DNA from: a virus | Taxonomy: Duplodnaviria > Heunggongvirae > Uroviricota > Caudoviricetes | Length of the DNA stretch: 47,721 nucleotides | Virus record (IMG/VR): IMGVR_UViG_2684622772_000013 | Strand: one strand, 5' to 3' | Translations under genes and position numbers: made by a program | Shown: piece after piece, positions 7,747 to 44,828 of the stretch | Numbering within the stretch: position 1 is the stretch's first letter | Layout of the letters: every line of letters starts with the position of its first letter | The notes under the pieces: model-generated | Database searches by the model: none | The model's input: only the letters and a program-made list of their open reading frames with translations | Told to the model about the DNA's origin: nothing

Positions 7747-8184
7747 TTAAGAGGCTTTTTGTTTTTTCTTTCGTGCTAGCTCTTCGTAAATTGCATTGTA
7801 CTTCTGTTTTTTCTCCTCAAGAGTTTTTAAAAGTTCATCTGTCTCACTGTCAGGGAGCTCGTCCAGAAGGTCAATGATGATTTTTTGTCTTGGATTTAAC
7901 TCCTGATAGAAACGTACCTGTCCACTTTCTTCTGTATCCTCTCCCAAAAGATAGGTTGGTGTTGTTCCAATGAGTGTTGCTAATTCCCTTAATTTCTCTC
8001 GGCGAGGAATTGTTTCGCCATTAAACCATTTGCTAACCGCTTTTGGTGTTAATTTCATTCGACGGGCAATTTCTGCCTGCCTTCCATGTTGTTCATAACC
8101 AGCGTTTTCACAGGCTAGCGCAAGCCTACTGGCGAACTCTTTACGCGCTTTATCTTCATGAACCATAAGTTCAATGATATTCAC
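7747..8184 (-). CDS. Prophage repressor, XRE/cI-type HTH (RacR-equivalent position)
   Basis: HTH segment RQAEIARRMKLTPKAVSKWFNGETIP; divergent from a Cro-like gene. Track start is GTG at 8182-8184; an in-frame ATG lies 18 nt downstream, so the start is ambiguous. No C-terminal S24 peptidase motif seen. Confidence 0.7.
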   Translation of the reverse strand: MNIIELMVHEDKARKEFASRLALACENAGYEQHGRQAEIARRMKLTPKAVSKWFNGETIPRREKLRELATLIGTTPTYLLGEDTEESGQVRFYQELNPRQKIIIDLLDELPDSETDELLKTLEEKKQKYNAIYEELARKKKQKAS

Positions 8185-8245
8185 TCTTGAATGTACTGTC
8201 AGTTCTGTTATAGCATGTACTCAAAGTTCACATTGTGAGGGTGAT
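8185..8245. promoter_or_regulatory. Divergent repressor/cro promoter-operator region
   Basis: Two ATGTACT copies (8191-8197, 8215-8221) overlap a candidate rightward promoter (TTGAAT, ~17-nt spacer, TATAGC) upstream of the Cro-like gene. Confidence 0.45.
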
Positions 8246-8500
8246 ATGAACCAGAAAACACTTGAAGATGTAATCAAAACTGTTCGCGTTTCTGTTGTGG
8301 CCGACGTTTGTGGTGTCAGCCAAAGAGCAATCTACAAATGGATGGATAACGGAAAATTGCCTCGCACAGAATATACCGGCGAAACAAATTACGCTGAAAA
8401 AATCGCTCATGCATCAAACGGATTATTTTCTGCTGATGTAATTTTAACTATTGGCAGAAATAAAACTACTACGAAAAAGCTGATGGGAGTTGATTCATGA
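8246..8500 (+). CDS. Cro/YdaS-like HTH regulator
   Basis: 84 aa from ATG at 8246 (MNQKTLEDVIKTVRVSVVADVCGVSQRAIYKWMDNGKLPR); GAGGG ribosome-binding site upstream; divergent from the repressor. Confidence 0.75.
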   Translation: MNQKTLEDVIKTVRVSVVADVCGVSQRAIYKWMDNGKLPRTEYTGETNYAEKIAHASNGLFSADVILTIGRNKTTTKKLMGVDS

Positions 8501-8919
8501 AAATCAAGCATGAGCACATCGAGTCAGTGTTGTTAGCCCTGGCAGCCGAAAAAGGGCAGGCATGGGTAGCCAATGCCATTACTGAAGAATATCTGCGCCA
8601 GGGGGGCGGCGAATTGCCCCTGGTACCAGGCAAGGACTGGAATAATCAGCAGAATATCTATCACCGTTGGTTGAAAGGTGAAACGAAAACGCAAAGAGAA
8701 AAAATTCAGAAGCTGATCCCAGCAATTCTGGCAATCCTTCCGCGCGAGCTGCGTCACCGACTCTGCATCTTCGATACCCTGGAACGCCGTGCATTACTGG
8801 CGGCGCAGGAAGCGTTAAGTACGGCAATTGATGCGCATGATGATGCAGTCCAAGCCGTTTACCGGAAAGCGCATTTCAGCGGCGGCGGGTCTTCCGACGA
8901 TTCTGTCATTGTTCATTAA
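8497..8919 (+). CDS. ydaT: YdaT-like protein (toxin/cII-like regulator of the YdaS-YdaT pair)
   Basis: 140 aa, MKIKHEHIESVLLALAAEKGQAWVANAITEEYLRQ; start overlaps the Cro-like stop (ATGA); matches recalled Rac YdaT length and N-terminus. Confidence 0.65.
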   Translation: MKIKHEHIESVLLALAAEKGQAWVANAITEEYLRQGGGELPLVPGKDWNNQQNIYHRWLKGETKTQREKIQKLIPAILAILPRELRHRLCIFDTLERRALLAAQEALSTAIDAHDDAVQAVYRKAHFSGGGSSDDSVIVH

Positions 8920-8931
8920 GCAAAAGTTTCC

Positions 8932-9789
8932 ATGCTGTTTGTGCTTATTCTAAGCCACCGGGCAGCATCATACGGGGCAATTATGGCCGCATTACCATAC
9001 ATGCAACTGTACATAGCTGATTACCTGGCTGACACCATGCATTTGTCAGCAGAGGAGCATGGTGCGTATTTGTTGCTGATGTTCAATTACTGGCAAACAG
9101 GAAAGCCAATACCTAAAAACAGGCTGGCAAAAATTGCCCGTCTGACTAACGAGCGATGGGCTGATGTTGAACCATCCTTGCAGGAGTTTTTTTGCGATAA
9201 CGGCGAGGAATGGGTGCATCTTCGGATTGAGGAAGATCTGGCATCAGTCAGGGAAAAATTAACCAAAAAATCAGCCGCAGGAAAAGCATCTGTTCAGGCC
9301 AGAAGAAGCAGAAAGGAAGCAGATGTTCAAACAAAACAAGAGAGAAATTTAACAGGTGTTCAAACAGATGTTGAAGTGGTGTTTGAACATGATGTCAACA
9401 CAAAGGCAACTAATAAAGATACAGATAAAGATCTAAAAACAGATCCCCCCCTAAATCCCCCCCGGGGGAATCGAGGTGTCAAAAAGTTTGACCCTCTGGA
9501 TATTGCTTTGCCGAACTGGATTTCTGTCTCGCTTTGGCGTGAGTGGGTTGAATTTCGCCAGGCATTGCGAAAACCGATTCGAACGGAGCAGGGCGCTAAC
9601 GGGGCGATACGGGAGCTGGAAAAATTCCGCCAGCAGGGTTTTTCACCTGAGCAGGTGATTCGACACAGCATCGCCAATGAATACCAGGGCTTGTTCGCGC
9701 CGAAAGGTGTTCGACCTGAGACGTTACTCCGACAGGTTAACACCGTCTCGTTACCGGATAGTGCGATCCCGCCAGGCTTCAGGGGGTAA
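8932..9789 (+). CDS. ydaU: Replication initiation protein, YdaU-like (DUF1376)
   Basis: 285 aa, same length as recalled Rac YdaU; sits upstream of the DnaC-like loader; contains iteron-like repeats and an AT-rich tract in its central linker. Confidence 0.75.
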   Translation: MLFVLILSHRAASYGAIMAALPYMQLYIADYLADTMHLSAEEHGAYLLLMFNYWQTGKPIPKNRLAKIARLTNERWADVEPSLQEFFCDNGEEWVHLRIEEDLASVREKLTKKSAAGKASVQARRSRKEADVQTKQERNLTGVQTDVEVVFEHDVNTKATNKDTDKDLKTDPPLNPPRGNRGVKKFDPLDIALPNWISVSLWREWVEFRQALRKPIRTEQGANGAIRELEKFRQQGFSPEQVIRHSIANEYQGLFAPKGVRPETLLRQVNTVSLPDSAIPPGFRG

Positions 9790-9795
9790 CTGACC

Positions 9796-10542
9796 ATGAA
9801 AAATATTGCGACAGGCGACGTTCTTGAACGTATCCGCAGACTGGCCCCGTCACATGTAACCGCGCCATTCAAGACGGTAGCGGAGTGGCGCGAGTGGCAA
9901 CTTTCCGAAGGCCAGAAACGTTGTGAGGAGATCAACCGTCAGAATCGTCAGTTGCGGGTGGAAAAAATTCTGAATCGCTCTGGCATCCAGCCATTGCACC
10001 GCAAATGCTCGTTTTCGAATTACCAGGTGCAGAACGAAGCGCAGCGATACGCGTTGAGTCAGGCGAAATCCATCGCTGATGAACTGATGACCGGGTGTAC
10101 AAATTTTGCGTTCAGCGGAAAACCTGGTACCGGGAAGAACCACTTAGCGGCAGCTATCGGGAATCGCCTGCTGAAAGACGGTCAGACAGTGATTGTGGTT
10201 ACCGTGGCTGATGTTATGAGTGCCCTGCACGCCAGCTATGACGATGGGCAGTCAGGCGAAAAATTTTTGCGGGAACTATGCGAAGTGGATCTGCTGGTTC
10301 TTGATGAAATTGGCATTCAGCGCGAGACGAAAAACGAGCAGGTGGTGCTGCACCAGATTGTTGATCGCCGGACAGCGTCGATGCGCAGCGTGGGGATGCT
10401 GACAAACCTGAACTATGAGGCCATGAAAACATTGCTCGGCGAGCGGATTATGGATCGCATGACCATGAACGGCGGGCGATGGGTGAATTTTAACTGGGAG
10501 AGCTGGCGTCCGAATGTCGTCCAGCCAGGAATTGAGAAGTAA
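9796..10542 (+). CDS. ydaV: DnaC-like helicase loader (AAA+ ATPase)
   Basis: Walker [16 protein letters not shown] and Walker B LLVLDEIG; 248 aa. Confidence 0.88.
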
Positions 10543-10564
10543 TTTTTACCGGGAGGAAATTTTT

Positions 10565-11326
10565 ATGGAGACTGTTTTTGACGCACTGAAAGCAATGGGA
10601 AAAGCCACATCCATAGAACTTGCTGCGCGACTTGATATCAGTCGTGAAGAAGTGCTGAACGAACTATGGGAACTGAAAAAAGCTGGTTTCGTTGATAAAA
10701 GCGCGTACACCTGGCGTGTGGCTGATAACAACGTTCAGCAGGAACAGCCAATGCAGGCAGAACTGCCGGAAGAAACCACCACGGCAACTGTAGTGAAAAT
10801 CTCAGAGTGCGATTTAACCGCGACGATTGAACAACGCGGACCACAAACGGCGGATGAACTGGCTACGCTGTTCGGTACAACATCCCGCAAAGTTGCTTCA
10901 ACGCTGGCAATGGCAATCAGCAAAGGACGCCTGATTCGCGTAAACCAGAACAGTAAATTTCGTTACTGCATGCCGGGCGATAATTTACCAGCAGAGCCGA
11001 AAGCTGCATCGGTAGCGGAAACTGATGGTAAAGCCTTTCCTCAGCCAGCCGGTGTTGCGTTACCAGTACAGGAAGCGGCAACACAGGAAGATATTAAAAC
11101 AGAAACTGTGGCGGACATTGTGCAGTCGCTGCCATCGTTTACTGAAACGCAAGCGGATGACCTAGTTTTACCATCGCTGCATATGGCAAACCGCGAACTG
11201 CGTCGGGCGAAAAATCATGTCCAGAAGTGGGAGCGAGTCTGCGCCGCGCTGCGGGAGCTGAACAAGCACCGGGATATTGTCCGACAGATTGTCGATTCCT
11301 CCAGTCGTATTGTGTCGGAAAAGTGA
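10565..11326 (+). CDS. Hypothetical phage protein (YdaW-like position)
   Basis: Track ORF trimmed to ATG at 10565 ([23 protein letters not shown]), which has a GGGAGG ribosome-binding site; this avoids overlap with ydaV. Confidence 0.6.
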
Positions 11327-20072: not shown

Positions 20073-20322
20073 NNNNNNNNNNNNNNNNNNNNNNNNNNNN
20101 NNNNNNNNNNNNNNNNNNNNNNNNNNNNNNNNNNNNNNNNNNNNNNNNNNNNNNNNNNNNNNNNNNNNNNNNNNNNNNNNNNNNNNNNNNNNNNNNNNNN
20201 NNNNNNNNNNNNNNNNNNNNNNNNNNNNNNNNNNNNNNNNNNNNNNNNNNNNNNNNNNNNNNNNNNNNNNNNNNNNNNNNNNNNNNNNNNNNNNNNNNNN
20301 NNNNNNNNNNNNNNNNNNNNNN
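20073..20322. other. Assembly gap (250 N)
   Basis: Run of N; truncates the endolysin 3' end and the Rz/Rz1 5' ends. Confidence 1.
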
Positions 20323-20701: not shown

Positions 20702-22159
20702 ATGAATACATCTCATGTAAGAGTTGTTACTCATATGTGTGGGTTCCTGGTTTGGCTCTATAGTCTTTCAATGTTGCCACCAATGGTTGTAGCATTGTTT
20801 TATAAAGAAAAAAGCCTGTTCGTTTTCTTTATAACTTTCGTTATATTTTTTTGCATTGGTGGCGGAGCGTGGTATACAACTAAGAAATCTGGCATTCAAT
20901 TACGTACCCGTGATGGGTTTATTATAATTGTAATGTTTTGGATTTTGTTTTCTGTTATTAGTGCATTCCCTTTATGGATTGACTCAGAACTTAATTTAAC
21001 GTTCATTGATGCTCTGTTTGAAGGGGTTTCTGGAATAACAACAACAGGAGCAACTGTAATTGATGATGTTAGTTCATTACCTCGGGCATATTTGTACTAT
21101 CGGTCACAGTTAAATTTTATAGGTGGTTTAGGAGTTATTGTTCTGGCGGTTGCAGTATTGCCATTATTGGGTATTGGTGGTGCAAAGCTTTATCAGTCAG
21201 AAATGCCGGGGCCATTTAAGGATGACAAACTCACTCCCCGCCTGGCCGATACGTCACGGACACTGTGGATAACTTATTCTTTATTAGGTATTGCTTGTAT
21301 TGTCTGTTATAGACTTGCAGGAATGCCTTTGTTTGATGCTATTTGTCACGGGATTTCCACAGTTTCGCTTGGTGGTTTCTCAACTCATAGCGAGAGTATC
21401 GGATATTTTAATAACTATTTGGTTGAGCTGGTGGCTGGTTCTTTTTCCCTGCTATCGGCTTTCAACTTCACTCTTTGGTATATTGTTATTAGCAGAAAAA
21501 CGATAAAACCTTTAATCAGAGATATTGAACTTCGTTTCTTTCTGTTAATAGCCTTAGGGGTGATCATTGTTACCTCTTTCCAGGTCTGGCATATAGGTAT
21601 GTATGACTTGCATGGAAGTTTTATTCATTCGTTTTTTCTTGCCAGCTCCATGCTCACTGATAATGGTTTAGCTACGCAGGATTATGCAAACTGGCCCACG
21701 CACACGATAGTGTTTTTGCTGTTGTCAAGTTTCTTTGGGGGATGTATAGGTTCAACCTGTGGTGGAATTAAGTCACTTCGATTTCTTATACTTTTCAAAC
21801 AAAGCAAACACGAGATAAATCAGCTTTCTCATCCCAGAGCGTTGTTGAGTGTAAATGTAGGAGGGAAGATAGTTACAGATCGTGTAATGAGGTCTGTATG
21901 GAGTTTCTTTTTTCTTTATACTCTCTTCACGGTGTTTTTTATACTGGTGTTAAATGGTATGGGATATGATTTTCTTACATCATTTGCAACAGTGGCTGCA
22001 TGTATTAATAATATGGGATTAGGTTTTGGGGCTACTGCATCGTCATTCGGAGTGCTTAATGACATTGCAAAATATTTAATGTGCATAGCTATGATTCTTG
22101 GTCGCCTTGAAATTTATCCTGTTATTATATTGTTTTCAGGTTTTTTTTGGCGCTCCTAA
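20702..22159 (+). CDS. trkG: TrkG potassium uptake protein (prophage moron)
   Basis: Track ORF trimmed to MNTSHVRVVTHMCGFLVWLYSLSMLPP (485 aa), matching recalled TrkG; multi-pass membrane protein; AT-rich relative to flanks. Confidence 0.92.
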   Translation: MNTSHVRVVTHMCGFLVWLYSLSMLPPMVVALFYKEKSLFVFFITFVIFFCIGGGAWYTTKKSGIQLRTRDGFIIIVMFWILFSVISAFPLWIDSELNLTFIDALFEGVSGITTTGATVIDDVSSLPRAYLYYRSQLNFIGGLGVIVLAVAVLPLLGIGGAKLYQSEMPGPFKDDKLTPRLADTSRTLWITYSLLGIACIVCYRLAGMPLFDAICHGISTVSLGGFSTHSESIGYFNNYLVELVAGSFSLLSAFNFTLWYIVISRKTIKPLIRDIELRFFLLIALGVIIVTSFQVWHIGMYDLHGSFIHSFFLASSMLTDNGLATQDYANWPTHTIVFLLLSSFFGGCIGSTCGGIKSLRFLILFKQSKHEINQLSHPRALLSVNVGGKIVTDRVMRSVWSFFFLYTLFTVFFILVLNGMGYDFLTSFATVAACINNMGLGFGATASSFGVLNDIAKYLMCIAMILGRLEIYPVIILFSGFFWRS

Positions 22160-39082: not shown

Positions 39083-39332
39083 NNNNNNNNNNNNNNNNNN
39101 NNNNNNNNNNNNNNNNNNNNNNNNNNNNNNNNNNNNNNNNNNNNNNNNNNNNNNNNNNNNNNNNNNNNNNNNNNNNNNNNNNNNNNNNNNNNNNNNNNNN
39201 NNNNNNNNNNNNNNNNNNNNNNNNNNNNNNNNNNNNNNNNNNNNNNNNNNNNNNNNNNNNNNNNNNNNNNNNNNNNNNNNNNNNNNNNNNNNNNNNNNNN
39301 NNNNNNNNNNNNNNNNNNNNNNNNNNNNNNNN
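39083..39332. other. Assembly gap (250 N)
   Basis: Run of N between the L and K homologues. Confidence 1.
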
Positions 39333-40555: not shown

Positions 40556-43500
40556 ATGGGTAAAGGCAGCAGTAAGGGGCATACCCCGCGCGAAGCGAAG
40601 GACAACCTGAAGTCCACGCAGCTGCTGAGTGTGATCGATGCCATCAGTGAAGGGCCGGTTGAAGGTCCGGTGGATGGATTAAAAAGCGTGCTGCTGAACA
40701 GTACGCCGGTGCTGGACAATGAGGGGAATACCAACATCTCCGGCGTCACGGTGGTGTTCCGGGCAGGTGAGCAGGAGCAGTCACCGCCGGAGGGGTTTGA
40801 ATCCTCCGGCTCCGAGACGGTGCTGGGTACGGAAGTGAAATATGACACGCCGATCACCCGGACCATCACGTCGGCAAACATCGACCGTCTGCGCTTTACC
40901 TTCGGTGTACAGGCACTGGTGGAAACCACCTCAAAGGGAGACAGGAATCCGTCGGAAGTCCGCCTGCTGGTTCAGATACAGCGTAACGGTGGCTGGGTGA
41001 CGGAAAAAGACATCACCATTAAGGGCAAAACCACCTCGCAGTATCTGGTCTCGGTGGTGGTGGATAACCTGCCTCCGCGCCCGTTCAGTATCCGGATGCG
41101 CAGGATGACACCGGACAGCACCACAGACCAGCTGCAGAACAAAACGCTCTGGTCGTCATACACCGAAATCATCGATGTGAAACAGTGCTACCCGAACACT
41201 GCACTGGTCGGCGTACAGGTGGACTCGGAGCAGTTCGGCAGCCAGCAGGTGAGTCGTAATTATCATCTTCGCGGGCGCATTCTGCAGGTGCCGTCGAACT
41301 ATAACCCGCAGACGCGACAATACAGCGGTATCTGGGACGGAACGTTAAAACCAGCATACAGCAACAACATGGCCTGGTGTCTGTGGGATATGCTGACCCA
41401 CCCGCGCTACGGCATGGGGAAACGTCTTGGTGCGGCGGATGTGGACAAATGGGCGCTGTATGTCATCGGCCAGTACTGCGACCAGTCAGTGCCGGACGGC
41501 TTTGGCGGCACGGAGCCGCGCATCACCTGTAATGCGTACCTGACCACACAGCGCAAGGCGTGGGATGTGCTCAGTGATTTCTGCTCGGCGATGCGCTGTA
41601 TGCCGGTATGGAACGGGCAGACGCTGACGTTCGTGCAGGACCGACCGTCGGATAAGGTGTGGACCTATAACCGCAGTAATGTGGTGATGCCGGATGATGG
41701 CGCGCCGTTCCGCTACAGCTTCAGCGCCCTGAAAGACCGCCATAATGCCGTTGAGGTGAACTGGATTGACCCGGATAACGGCTGGGAGACGGCGACAGAG
41801 CTTGTGGAGGATACGCAGGCCATTGCCCGTTACGGTCGTAACGTCACGAAGATGGATGCTTTTGGCTGTACCAGCCGGGGGCAGGCACACCGCGCCGGGC
41901 TGTGGCTGATTAAAACAGAACTGCTGGAAACGCAGACCGTGGACTTCAGCGTGGGCGCAGAAGGGCTTCGCCATGTGCCGGGCGATGTCATTGAAATCTG
42001 TGATGATGACTATGCGGGTATCAGCATCGGCGGGCGCGTGCTGGCGGTAAACAGCCAGACCCGGACGCTGACGCTCGACCGTGAAATCACGCTGCCATCC
42101 TCCGGTACCATGCTGATAAGCCTGGTTGACGGAAGTGGCAATCCGGTCAGCGTGGAGGTTCAGTCCGTCACCGACGGCGTGAAGGTGAAAGTGAGCCGTG
42201 TTCCTGACGGCGTTGCTGAATACAGCGTGTGGGGGCTGAAGCTGCCGACGTTGCGCCAGCGCCTGTTCCGCTGTGNNNNNNNNNNNNNNNNNNNNNNNNN
42301 NNNNNNNNNNNNNNNNNNNNNNNNNNNNNNNNNNNNNNNNNNNNNNNNNNNNNNNNNNNNNNNNNNNNNNNNNNNNNNNNNNNNNNNNNNNNNNNNNNNN
42401 NNNNNNNNNNNNNNNNNNNNNNNNNNNNNNNNNNNNNNNNNNNNNNNNNNNNNNNNNNNNNNNNNNNNNNNNNNNNNNNNNNNNNNNNNNNNNNNNNNNN
42501 NNNNNNNNNNNNNNNNNNNNNNNNNNNNNNNNNNNNNNNNNNNNNNNNNNNNNNNNNNNNNNNNNNNNNNNNNNNNNNNNNNNNNNNNNNNNNNNNNNNN
42601 NNNNNGCTGACAGTCCGGGCGGTAAATGCCTGGGGACAGCAGGGCGATCCGGCGTCGGTATCGTTCAGGATTGCCGCACCGGTAGCACCGTCGCGGATTG
42701 AGCTGACGCCGGGCTATTTTCAGATAACTGCCACGCCGCATCTTGCGGTTTATGATCCGACGGTACAGTTTGAGTTCTGGTTCTCGGAAACGCGGATTAC
42801 CGATATCAGGCAGGTTGAAACCACAGCCCGCTACCTTGGCGCGGGGCTGTACTGGATAGCCGCCAGTATCAATATCAAACCGGGCCATGATTATTACTTT
42901 TATATCCGCAGTGTGAACACCGTTGGCAAATCGGCATTCGTGGAGGCCGTCGGTCGGGCGAGCGATGATGCGGAAGGTTACCTGGATTTTTTCAAAGGCA
43001 AGATAACCGAATCCCATCTCGGTAAAGAGCTGCTGGAAAAAGTTGATCTGACGGAGGATAACGCCAGCAGACTGGATGAGTTTTCGAAAGAGTGGAAGGA
43101 CGCTAACGATAAATGGAATGCGATGTGGGGCGTCAAAATTGAGCAGACCAAAGACGGCAAACATTATGTCGCGGGTATTGGCCTCAGCATGGAGGACACG
43201 GAGGAAGGCAAGCTGAGCCAGTTTCTGGTTGCCGCCAATCGTATCGCGTTTATTGACCCGGCAAACGGGAATGAAACGCCGATGTTTGTGGCGCAGGGCA
43301 ACCAGATATTCATGAACGACGTGTTCCTGAAGCGCCTGACAGCCCCCGCCATTACCAGCGGTGGCAGTCCTCCGGTATTTTCCCTGACATCAGACGGAAA
43401 GCTGACCGCTAAAAATGCGGATATCAGTGGTAGTGTGAATGCGAACTCAGGAACGCTCAACAATGTCACGATTAACCAGAACTGTACGATTAAGGGCATG

Positions 43501-44023: not shown

Positions 44024-44828
44024 ATGCGTAAAGTTTGTGCCGCCATTTTGTCCGCAGCCATTTGTCTGGCCGTATCCGGTGCGCCTGCATGGGCGTCTGA
44101 ACATCAGTCCACGCTGAGCGCGGGGTATCTTCATGCCCGGACCAACGTTCCCGGCAGTGATGATCTGAACGGGATTAACGTGAAATACCGTTATGAGTTT
44201 ACGGATACGCTGGGGCTGGTGACGTCATTCAGCTATGCAGGAGACAAGAATCGCCAGCTGACCCGTTACAGCGATACCCGCTGGCATGAAGATTCCGTGC
44301 GTAACCGCTGGTTCAGCGTGATGGCGGGGCCGTCTGTGCGCGTGAATGAATGGTTCAGCGCGTATGCGATGGCGGGTGTGGCTTACAGCCGTGTGTCGAC
44401 TTTTTCCGGGGATTATATCCGCGTAACTGACAATAAGGGGAAAACGCACGATGTGCTGACCGGAAGTGATGACGGTCGCCACAGCAACACNNNNNNNNNN
44501 NNNNNNNNNNNNNNNNNNNNNNNNNNNNNNNNNNNNNNNNNNNNNNNNNNNNNNNNNNNNNNNNNNNNNNNNNNNNNNNNNNNNNNNNNNNNNNNNNNNN
44601 NNNNNTTTCTCCGGGGATTATCTCCGCGTAACTGACAACAAGGGGAAAACGCACGACGTGCTGACCGGAAGTGATGACGGTCGCCACAGCAACACGTCTC
44701 TGGCGTGGGGAGCTGGCGTGCAGTTTAACCCGACCGAATCCGTGGCCATTGATATTGCTTATGAAGGCTCCGGCAGTGGCGACTGGCGCACTGACGGTTT
44801 CATCGTGGGTGTCGGTTATAAGTTCTGA
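44024..44828 (+). CDS. lom: Outer membrane protein Lom (Ail/Lom family), interrupted by gap 44491..44605
   Basis: Signal peptide MRKVCAAILSAAICLAVSGAPAWA and C-terminal ...GFIVGVGYKF beta-barrel terminus; the gap is flanked by a near-identical ~90-bp duplicate. Confidence 0.85.

Follow-up and report, generated by a model that had tools for sequence, protein, structure and literature searches.

A candidate replication origin within ydaU, the putative initiator gene of a Rac-type prophage

Since the late 1970s, a replication origin of the Rac prophage of Escherichia coli K-12, oriJ, has been known from its function. The literature credits Rac with an active origin of its own (PMC3945230), and oriJ has been used for plasmid construction, as indicated by an entry in the reference list of PMC11014345. 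However, a 2026 preprint reports that excised K-12 Rac is replication-defective and is lost on division, a statement at odds with that of an active oriJ (PMC3945230). The genes ydaUVW are still entered as uncharacterised in papers from 2023 to 2026, and no base-pair location or anatomy of oriJ was found in the literature searched.

In bacteriophage lambda, iterons and an AT-rich tract lie in the middle of the initiator gene, O (PMC7466680). In the RepA_N initiators, the N-terminal domain binds Rep boxes that are central in the initiator's own gene, and the ori-encoding central region specifies a dispensable linker (PMC5703833). The principle of an origin inside an initiator gene is old, and the existence of a Rac origin was already known. 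What appears to be new here is the base-pair anatomy of such an origin, the domain logic of the YdaU protein, and how generally the layout holds among DUF1376 initiators, a family in which the origin-in-gene design seems never to have been mapped before.

The window, by which we mean the whole stretch of viral DNA that was analysed (47,721 bases), contains a region that is 99.9% identical to the ydaU region of K-12 Rac; the gene is ydaU of a Rac-type prophage. Positions 9291-9468, within the part of ydaU that codes for a disordered linker between two domains, very probably form the origin from which this Rac-type prophage replicates, which in K-12 Rac is oriJ. No base-pair map of oriJ was found, and the identity of this segment with oriJ is accordingly inferred.

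The YdaU protein and its gene neighbourhood

The genes and the parts of the protein discussed here are as follows.

8983-9789, + strand: ydaU, putative replication initiator, 268 aa from the ATG at 8983
YdaU aa 1 to ~110: DUF1376 domain, a predicted winged helix
YdaU aa ~110-165: linker, predicted to be disordered
YdaU aa ~166-268: DnaT-like C-terminal domain
9796-10542, + strand: ydaV, DnaC/IstB-like AAA+ helicase loader (Pfam IstB_IS21, E 1.7e-20; Bac_DnaA, E 7e-9)

Pfam DUF1376 (PF07120) matches YdaU at aa 5-87 with an E value of 2.4e-26 and a score of 92.4 bits, against a gathering cutoff of 30.1, and it is the only Pfam family found. RefSeq labels the protein 'YdaU family protein', with one record reading 'phage replication initiator YdaU family protein'. 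Among the PHROG families, matches are to 'primosomal protein' and to 'replication initiation O-like', the latter limited to residues 95-242. (The first protein search with YdaU returned near-identical E. coli proteins alone and was of no use for diversity.) In RefSeq, YdaU has 285 aa and starts at the ATG at 8932. Orthologues from Citrobacter to Pseudomonas all start with MAALPYM, which corresponds to the ATG at 8983, with GGGG ahead of it, and the Pfam domain begins 5 residues on. The annotated RefSeq start is probably 17 codons too far upstream (window 8932-8983).

Modelling of YdaU residues 1-110 by AF2 with a 92-sequence alignment gave a pLDDT of 93; the topology is H-b-H-H-b-b, with a long helix after it. 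A single-sequence AF2 model, with a pLDDT of 49, was too poor for use. When the DUF1376 domain model was compared with the PDB by Foldseek, weak winged-helix matches alone were obtained (E > 0.07), and a DUF1376 profile search against PDB sequences yielded nothing meaningful. From the model, the domain can confidently be predicted to be a winged helix resembling those of replication initiators, with scores that are modest and a fold that does not in itself establish the target.

At the other end of the protein, the YdaU C-terminus matches the PDB DnaT chains 2ru8 and 9zbt weakly (E 0.003-0.009). The window's own C-terminus has no Pfam or NCBIfam match, falling below the thresholds of the DnaT models PF17948 and NF002770, while the allelic C-terminal halves at loci L002 and L003 match the DnaT DNA-binding domain PF17948 with E values of ~1e-17 to 1e-18. 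The product of the next gene, ydaV, matches the PHROG family 'DnaC-like helicase loader' (E 4e-85). In order, the genes encode a RacR-like repressor (minus strand), YdaS (HTH), YdaT, YdaU, YdaV, and DUF1627 and DUF977 proteins, the neighbourhood of a classic early-right operon.

Repeats, A-rich tract and G+C-rich boundary in the linker-coding segment

The features of the candidate origin are listed below in order of position.

9291-9402 (gene nt 309-420): whole repeat field, exact and degenerate copies, inside the top repeat cluster of the window
9291: degenerate copy, TGTTCAGGCC
9324-9333, + strand: iteron-like site 1, exact TGTTCAAACA
9357-9366, + strand: iteron-like site 2, exact TGTTCAAACA
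9369: degenerate copy, TGTTGAAGTG
9380-9389, - strand: iteron-like site 3, TGTTTGAACA, the exact reverse complement of TGTTCAAACA
9389-9444, + strand: A-rich low-stability tract, AATAAAGATACAGATAAAGATCTAAAAACAGATC, strand-asymmetric, a candidate DNA-unwinding element
9393: degenerate copy, TGTCAACACA
9443-9468, + strand: G+C-rich boundary, ATCCCCCCC twice (9443-9451, 9455-9463), then the palindrome CCCCCGGGGG (9459-9468)

Along the + strand of the window, the repeats and the sequences around them read GAAGCAGA TGTTCAAACA AAACAAGAGAGAAATTTAACAGG TGTTCAAACA GATGTTGAAGTGG TGTTTGAACA TGATGTCAACACAAAGGCAACTAATAAAGATACAGATAAAGATCTAAAAACAGATCCCCCCCTAAATCCCCCCCGGGGGAAT. Exactly three exact copies of TGTTCAAACA are present on both strands of the 47,721-base window. 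The preliminary description had reported two direct copies and one inverted copy; all three are indeed exact, but the second lies at 9357-9366 and not, one base off, at 9358-9367. Each 10-mer is a near-palindrome, TGTT-YR-AACA, and the direct and inverted copies differ in the central dinucleotide alone. Across the exact and degenerate copies, the start-to-start spacings are 33, 33, 12, 11, and 13 bp, near whole helical turns. The exact repeats occupy nt 342-407 of ydaU, between the parts coding for the N-terminal domain (the helix ends at aa ~109) and the C-terminal domain.

Strict plasmid-type iterons, which are direct repeats of ~17-22 bp with regular spacing and at least four copies, were considered as a description and rejected. 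The Rac repeats are 10-14 bp long, with three perfect sites, one of them inverted, and an irregular spacing of 33 and 23 bp; the arrays of relatives are tidy, with a step of 11 bp. 'Iteron-like' is a fair label, but the repeats are not iterons as the term is strictly used for plasmids.

As sources of the repeats, chance and protein coding can each be rejected. Among 300 Markov-1 simulations of the window, none (0/300) contained a 10-mer at least three times within 100 bp. Resampling of the synonymous codons 5000 times, with the YdaU protein sequence unchanged, gave a mean of 0.9 and a maximum of 9 8-mer repeat pairs in gene nt 301-480, where 16 are observed, and the 10-mer triple arose in 0/5000 of these recodings. 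The segment 9301-9450 is the top short-repeat cluster of the 47.7-kb window, with 15 pairs versus 8 for the runner-up.

The runner-up cluster, at 20721-20870, has a GC of 0.37; its 8 pairs are mostly inverted, and it adjoins an N run. Four such runs (masked or unresolved) are present in the window, at 20073-20322 (the adjoining one), 39083-39332, 42276-42605, and 44491-44605.

If the repeats were instead a by-product of the protein, without function as DNA, they would go back either to short linker peptide repeats (VQT...VQT) or to duplications that arose by slippage where the segment is disordered and unconstrained. Sites 1 and 2 are in frame, 33 bp apart, and both code for V-Q-T. Disorder is predicted for the linker, the family often has simple hexanucleotide tracts, (GATACA)n for example, and ~60% of the direct-pair spacings in the family are multiples of 3, some of which could be in-frame duplications. 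Site 3, however, is a reverse complement and codes for V-F-E-H, and a peptide repeat therefore cannot account for it. The failure of every synonymous resampling to regenerate the repeats also speaks against a peptide origin, as does the invariance of sites 2 and 3 while the amino acids of the surrounding codons change. Moreover, Escherichia and Pseudomonas have the motif in common despite different linker peptides, and the 11-bp arrays of relatives pass through all three frames of the coding region, which points to DNA-level sites. We attach hardly any probability to a by-product of the protein.

The AT-rich stretch that had been noted after the repeats is borne out by its composition and its stability. 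GC is 0.28 at 9380-9439, and 9389-9438, with a dG of -58.1 kcal/mol, is the least stable 50-bp segment in ydaU and falls in the lowest 2.2% of the whole window. The coding strand of 9389-9438 is 55% A and 16% T.

Beyond this tract, a C-run/G-run palindrome had been placed at ~9445-9475, and it too is present, as the two ATCCCCCCC units and CCCCCGGGGG at 9443-9468. CCCCCGGGGG, at 9459-9468, is a perfect palindrome, and 9443-9468 codes for DPPLNPPRG, the start of the C-terminal module. A second type of allele (L004-type, described below) has C5-TAAAT-C5 in common with the window, and the G-run is absent from it. As other alleles do not conserve the palindrome, the origin can probably do without it.

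Within ydaU, 9445-9463 contains two C7 homopolymer runs. A ydaU frameshift reported from a K-12 strain evolved under heat (PMC10044804) affects codon 178/285, which maps onto the C-runs, within 9443-9468. The C7 runs may be a hotspot of slippage, by which the initiator is inactivated.

Signals of other kinds were also sought. GATC sites are present at 9430 and 9442, 12 bp apart, which is not unusual for the window. No DnaA box with one mismatch or fewer was found in 8100-11000, and matches to the oriC-type 13-mer (one weak match at the site, 28 in the window) are not significant. An origin controlled by DnaA or by Dam/SeqA was dropped, as DnaA boxes, 13-mers, and GATC clustering are all non-significant in the window. 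Promoter, terminator, and Rfam scans gave nothing at the site, and with these scans empty, RNA-level explanations were dropped as well.

Allelic modules and the DUF1376 family

The Rac-type set consists of 44 distinct ydaU haplotypes, and across these the gene varies most in its linker. At repeats 2 and 3, none of the positions vary (0/20), compared with 21/60 nearby (Fisher p 0.001); with repeat 1 added, the values are 3/30 versus 21/60 (p 0.012). Window positions 9347-9366 (gene nt 365-384), which hold repeat 2, are invariant in 44/44 haplotypes. Gene nt 397-407, which hold repeat 3, are likewise invariant in 44/44, with variable positions on either side. Repeat 1 varies in 5/44 haplotypes, where it reads TGTTCAAAAA, TGCTCAAACA, or TGTTCGAACA, and the A-rich tract at 9389-9444 is almost invariant across the 44.

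Recombinant ydaU genes are found in E. coli genomes, and their partial matches break at window ~9426-9439, in the A-rich tract. The genes at L003 and L088 have a Rac-type N-terminal half, complete with the same three 10-mers, and continue from this place into a different C-terminal half that matches DnaT (PF17948), after which there is a short P-like gene. These breaks, and the joining of one N-terminal half to either a YdaU-type or a DnaT-type C-terminal half, speak for a site that is mainly a recombination joint, with the A-rich ACAGATCTAAAA between exchangeable modules kept for shuffling and the repeats incidental. Such a joint, however, leaves unexplained the 10-mers upstream, their invariance, their helical spacing, and their link to the N-terminal clade, and as the main role of the site we hold it to be very improbable. 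Lambdoid origins double as module boundaries, and for this reason an origin and a recombination joint are compatible rather than exclusive.

Other alleles carry other repeats. At L001, L004, and L005, a different N-terminal module, without a Pfam family but matching the PHROG family 'replication initiation protein', is combined with a YdaU-type C-terminal half and ydaV. In the equivalent place this module has the repeats GGTAACGCTG-CCAGCGTTAC...AGCGTTACC, then a purine-rich tract, then CCCCCTAAATCCCCC; the L004-type repeat is AGCGTTAC. At L002, L107, and L114, DUF1376 is accompanied by an inserted T5orf172 domain, and the repeats are CGTAGCTACG/ACTAC. The repeats thus change with the N-terminal part, while the A-rich junction is common to the allele types. 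That the repeat sequence follows the N-terminal part is as expected if this part reads the repeats. An exception is L002, whose first 83 residues are those of Rac and whose repeats are different; there, the inserted domain may supply the recognition.

The T5orf172/MUG113 insert at these three loci comes after the winged helix, and the repeats CGTAGCTACG and AACTAC/GTAGTT lie partly within the sequence coding for the insert (gene nt ~310-560 at L002).

Among the E. coli alleles, the type of C-terminal domain and the type of loader go together. Across genera they do not: DnaT-type C-terminal domains occur 8 times with P-like loaders and 6 times with DnaC-like loaders. The pairing of C-terminal domain and loader was discarded as evidence because it is inconsistent across genera.

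For the wider DUF1376 family, one genome per species was scanned, which gave 80 loci, 69 of them non-redundant. In the 69 loci, direct-repeat pairs are enriched ~8-fold in the interval from +300 to +500 nt of the gene (Wilcoxon p 3e-10), and loci with a direct pair amount to ~60% in this interval versus ~22% elsewhere; inverted pairs show no enrichment (p 0.68). Pair spacings peak at 11 bp (24 pairs), 12 bp (37 pairs), 18 bp, 22-24 bp, 33 bp, and 36 bp; the peaks at 11-12, 22-24, and 33 bp correspond to turns of the DNA helix. At least one pair is out of frame, with a spacing that is not a multiple of 3, at 41 of the 58 loci having any pair.

Three to five copies of CGTT(C/G)AAC(G) or GTTTGAAC are present in genes of Citrobacter, Enterobacter, Pantoea, Serratia, Rahnella, Pseudomonas, Azotobacter, and Propionivibrio, and in a Pseudomonas phage. 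In those genera the repeats are followed by a tract of (GATACA)n or AAAGATCTAAAAGA, and often then by a C-run. The core of the motif, GTT(S)AAC/GTTYRAAC, occurs 1.4 times per 310-nt linker versus 0.076 in the flanks in the clade that is at least 55% identical to the Rac domain. In the distant clade, which has other 11-12-bp repeats, it is found at 1/34 loci. Among these sequences, then, the motif core tracks the clade of the N-terminal domain. From this tracking of N-terminal clade and module, and from the predicted winged-helix fold, we infer that the repeats would be bound by the N-terminal domain of YdaU.

Simple tracts are themselves a recurrent feature. In many relatives (L110, L118, L120, L125, and L130 among them), 4-8 units of (GATACA)n, coding for (TD)n, come right after the repeats, at gene nt ~400-450; Rac retains just GATACAGATAAAGAT in this place (window 9417-9431). 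Distant clades have other simple tracts, such as (GAACAG)n, (CATAAC)n, and CCTTCACCTGCA x4. The simple tracts after the repeats might be an unwinding element or a length-variable spacer.

The loci L133-L168 belong to the distant DUF1376 clade and come from Kordiimonas, Geminicoccus, and other Alphaproteobacteria. Up to 2.6 kb from the gene start, neither a DnaC-like nor a P-like gene was detected there, and the C-terminal halves have no relationship to YdaU or DnaT; the context in which these genes work may be a different one. Five metagenomic DUF1376 proteins (P0189, P0196, P0205, P0217, and P0220) also match the HNH-endonuclease families PF13395, PF01844, and PF14279, which suggests that they are HNH-DUF1376 fusions.

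True protein-binding sites could still have some other job at this locus, such as autoregulation of ydaU/ydaV, a roadblock, or incompatibility/handcuffing, with initiation at oriJ taking place elsewhere in the prophage. Plasmid iterons also serve copy-number control, and an AT-rich intergenic stretch is present at 8421-8470; both count in favour of another job. Against it, the 47.7-kb window has no second iteron-like cluster, and the site itself has no promoter-like or terminator-like signal. Furthermore, the least stable tract of the gene comes directly after the repeats, in the same order and position as in lambda, and this two-part layout is repeated across genera. We consider it improbable that the sites serve another job with initiation elsewhere.

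Proposed initiation and comparison with known systems

That the origin lies inside the gene of its initiator, as it does in lambda O, was the central proposal of the preliminary description, and all of the computational tests run support it: the lambda control, the family peak over 69 loci, the haplotype footprint, the tracking of the N-terminal part, the predicted winged helix, and the DnaC-like loader. On this reading, YdaU would bind the repeats and the origin would fire at the site. Weaker points are the substitutions tolerated at repeat 1, the mere three perfect sites with their irregular spacing, the family-wide enrichment of direct pairs alone, the lack of a nearby DnaA box, and the description of excised K-12 Rac as replication-defective.

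Initiation could then proceed as follows. Rightward transcription from an early promoter repressed by RacR would supply YdaU and YdaV. Dimers of the YdaU DUF1376 winged helix would bind the palindromic TGTT-YR-AACA sites, which lie on roughly one helix face, and would form a nucleoprotein complex like the lambda 'O-some'. The resulting stress would melt the adjoining A-rich tract at 9389-9444, with the C-runs as a G+C boundary. Finally, the DnaT-like C-terminal domain would hold single-stranded DNA and/or recruit YdaV with host DnaB to the bubble.

A broader reading, which we put forward tentatively and regard as somewhat doubtful, is that DUF1376 (YdaU-type) initiators define a class of prophage origins that is widespread in Proteobacteria and beyond and has gone undescribed until now. 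Members of such a class would have ~11-bp-phased sites in the linker-coding part, often out of frame, and a simple tract, e.g. (GATACA)n, as the unwinding element. The length of the tract and the nearby C-runs could vary by slippage, tuning or switching off origin and initiator together.

The analysis provides a base-pair-level candidate for oriJ in the most-studied bacterium and assigns putative roles to the three parts of YdaU. It would also extend the origin-inside-initiator-gene design to a third sequence-unrelated family, beside lambda O and RepA_N, and it offers a simple rule for finding candidate origins in many prophages, namely to search a DUF1376 gene 300-500 nt from its start. Induction of Rac-type and related prophages in pathogenic E. 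coli requires that they replicate, which makes the origin and its initiator useful handles. The gain is incremental, not conceptual.

Several described systems resemble this locus in part. With oriJ of K-12 Rac, described as an active origin and used for plasmids, it shares the nearly identical ydaU region noted above. The E. coli dnaT-dnaC genes have the same order, a protein with a DnaT-like domain followed by a DnaC-like AAA+ loader; unlike YdaU, DnaT is without DUF1376 and acts in PriA-dependent restart, not at a sequence-specific origin. The RepA_N initiators of Gram-positive plasmids (pSK41 and pTZ2162 Rep) have the same three-part plan as YdaU. They are without sequence similarity to it (16% identity in a structural alignment) and differ in host range, in being of plasmid rather than prophage origin, in the C-terminal domain, and in being without a dedicated downstream loader gene.

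The comparison with lambda is the most extensive, since lambda O served as the positive control in the same pipeline as Rac ydaU. Assignment of YdaU to the lambda O family by homology was ruled out, because the N-terminal domain of lambda O has no detectable counterpart in the YdaU sequence; the C-terminal part of lambda O gave no tblastn match in any locus. The Rac sites are 10 bp long rather than ~18-19 bp, with three perfect copies rather than four, and are irregularly spaced. The window allele combines a DnaT-like C-terminal domain with a DnaC-like loader in place of lambda P. The measured properties of the two genes are as follows; the lambda record annotates four iterons at nt 349-433 of the O gene.

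Repeat-pair peak from gene start: lambda O, +300 to +500 nt; Rac ydaU, +300 to +400 nt
Repeat positions in the gene: lambda O, nt 349-433; Rac ydaU, nt 342-407
Start of the least stable 50-bp segment: lambda O, nt 438; Rac ydaU, nt 407
dG of that segment: lambda O, -57.2 kcal/mol; Rac ydaU, -58.1 kcal/mol
A/T of the A-rich tract: lambda O, 57%/17%; Rac ydaU, 55%/16%

Lambda O and Rac ydaU are thus identical in the order, the position, the orientation to transcription, and the composition of these elements. In both, the origin (for Rac, the candidate origin) is in the middle of the initiator gene, with repeats of internal dyad symmetry at gene nt ~340-430, directly after them a purine-skewed, A-rich tract on the coding strand, and then a G+C-rich or palindromic element. 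In lambda O, the N-terminal half of the protein is the origin-binding part and the C-terminal half is turned towards the loader, and the same division is predicted for YdaU. In both, the loader gene lies directly downstream, in a module under an immunity-controlled early promoter.
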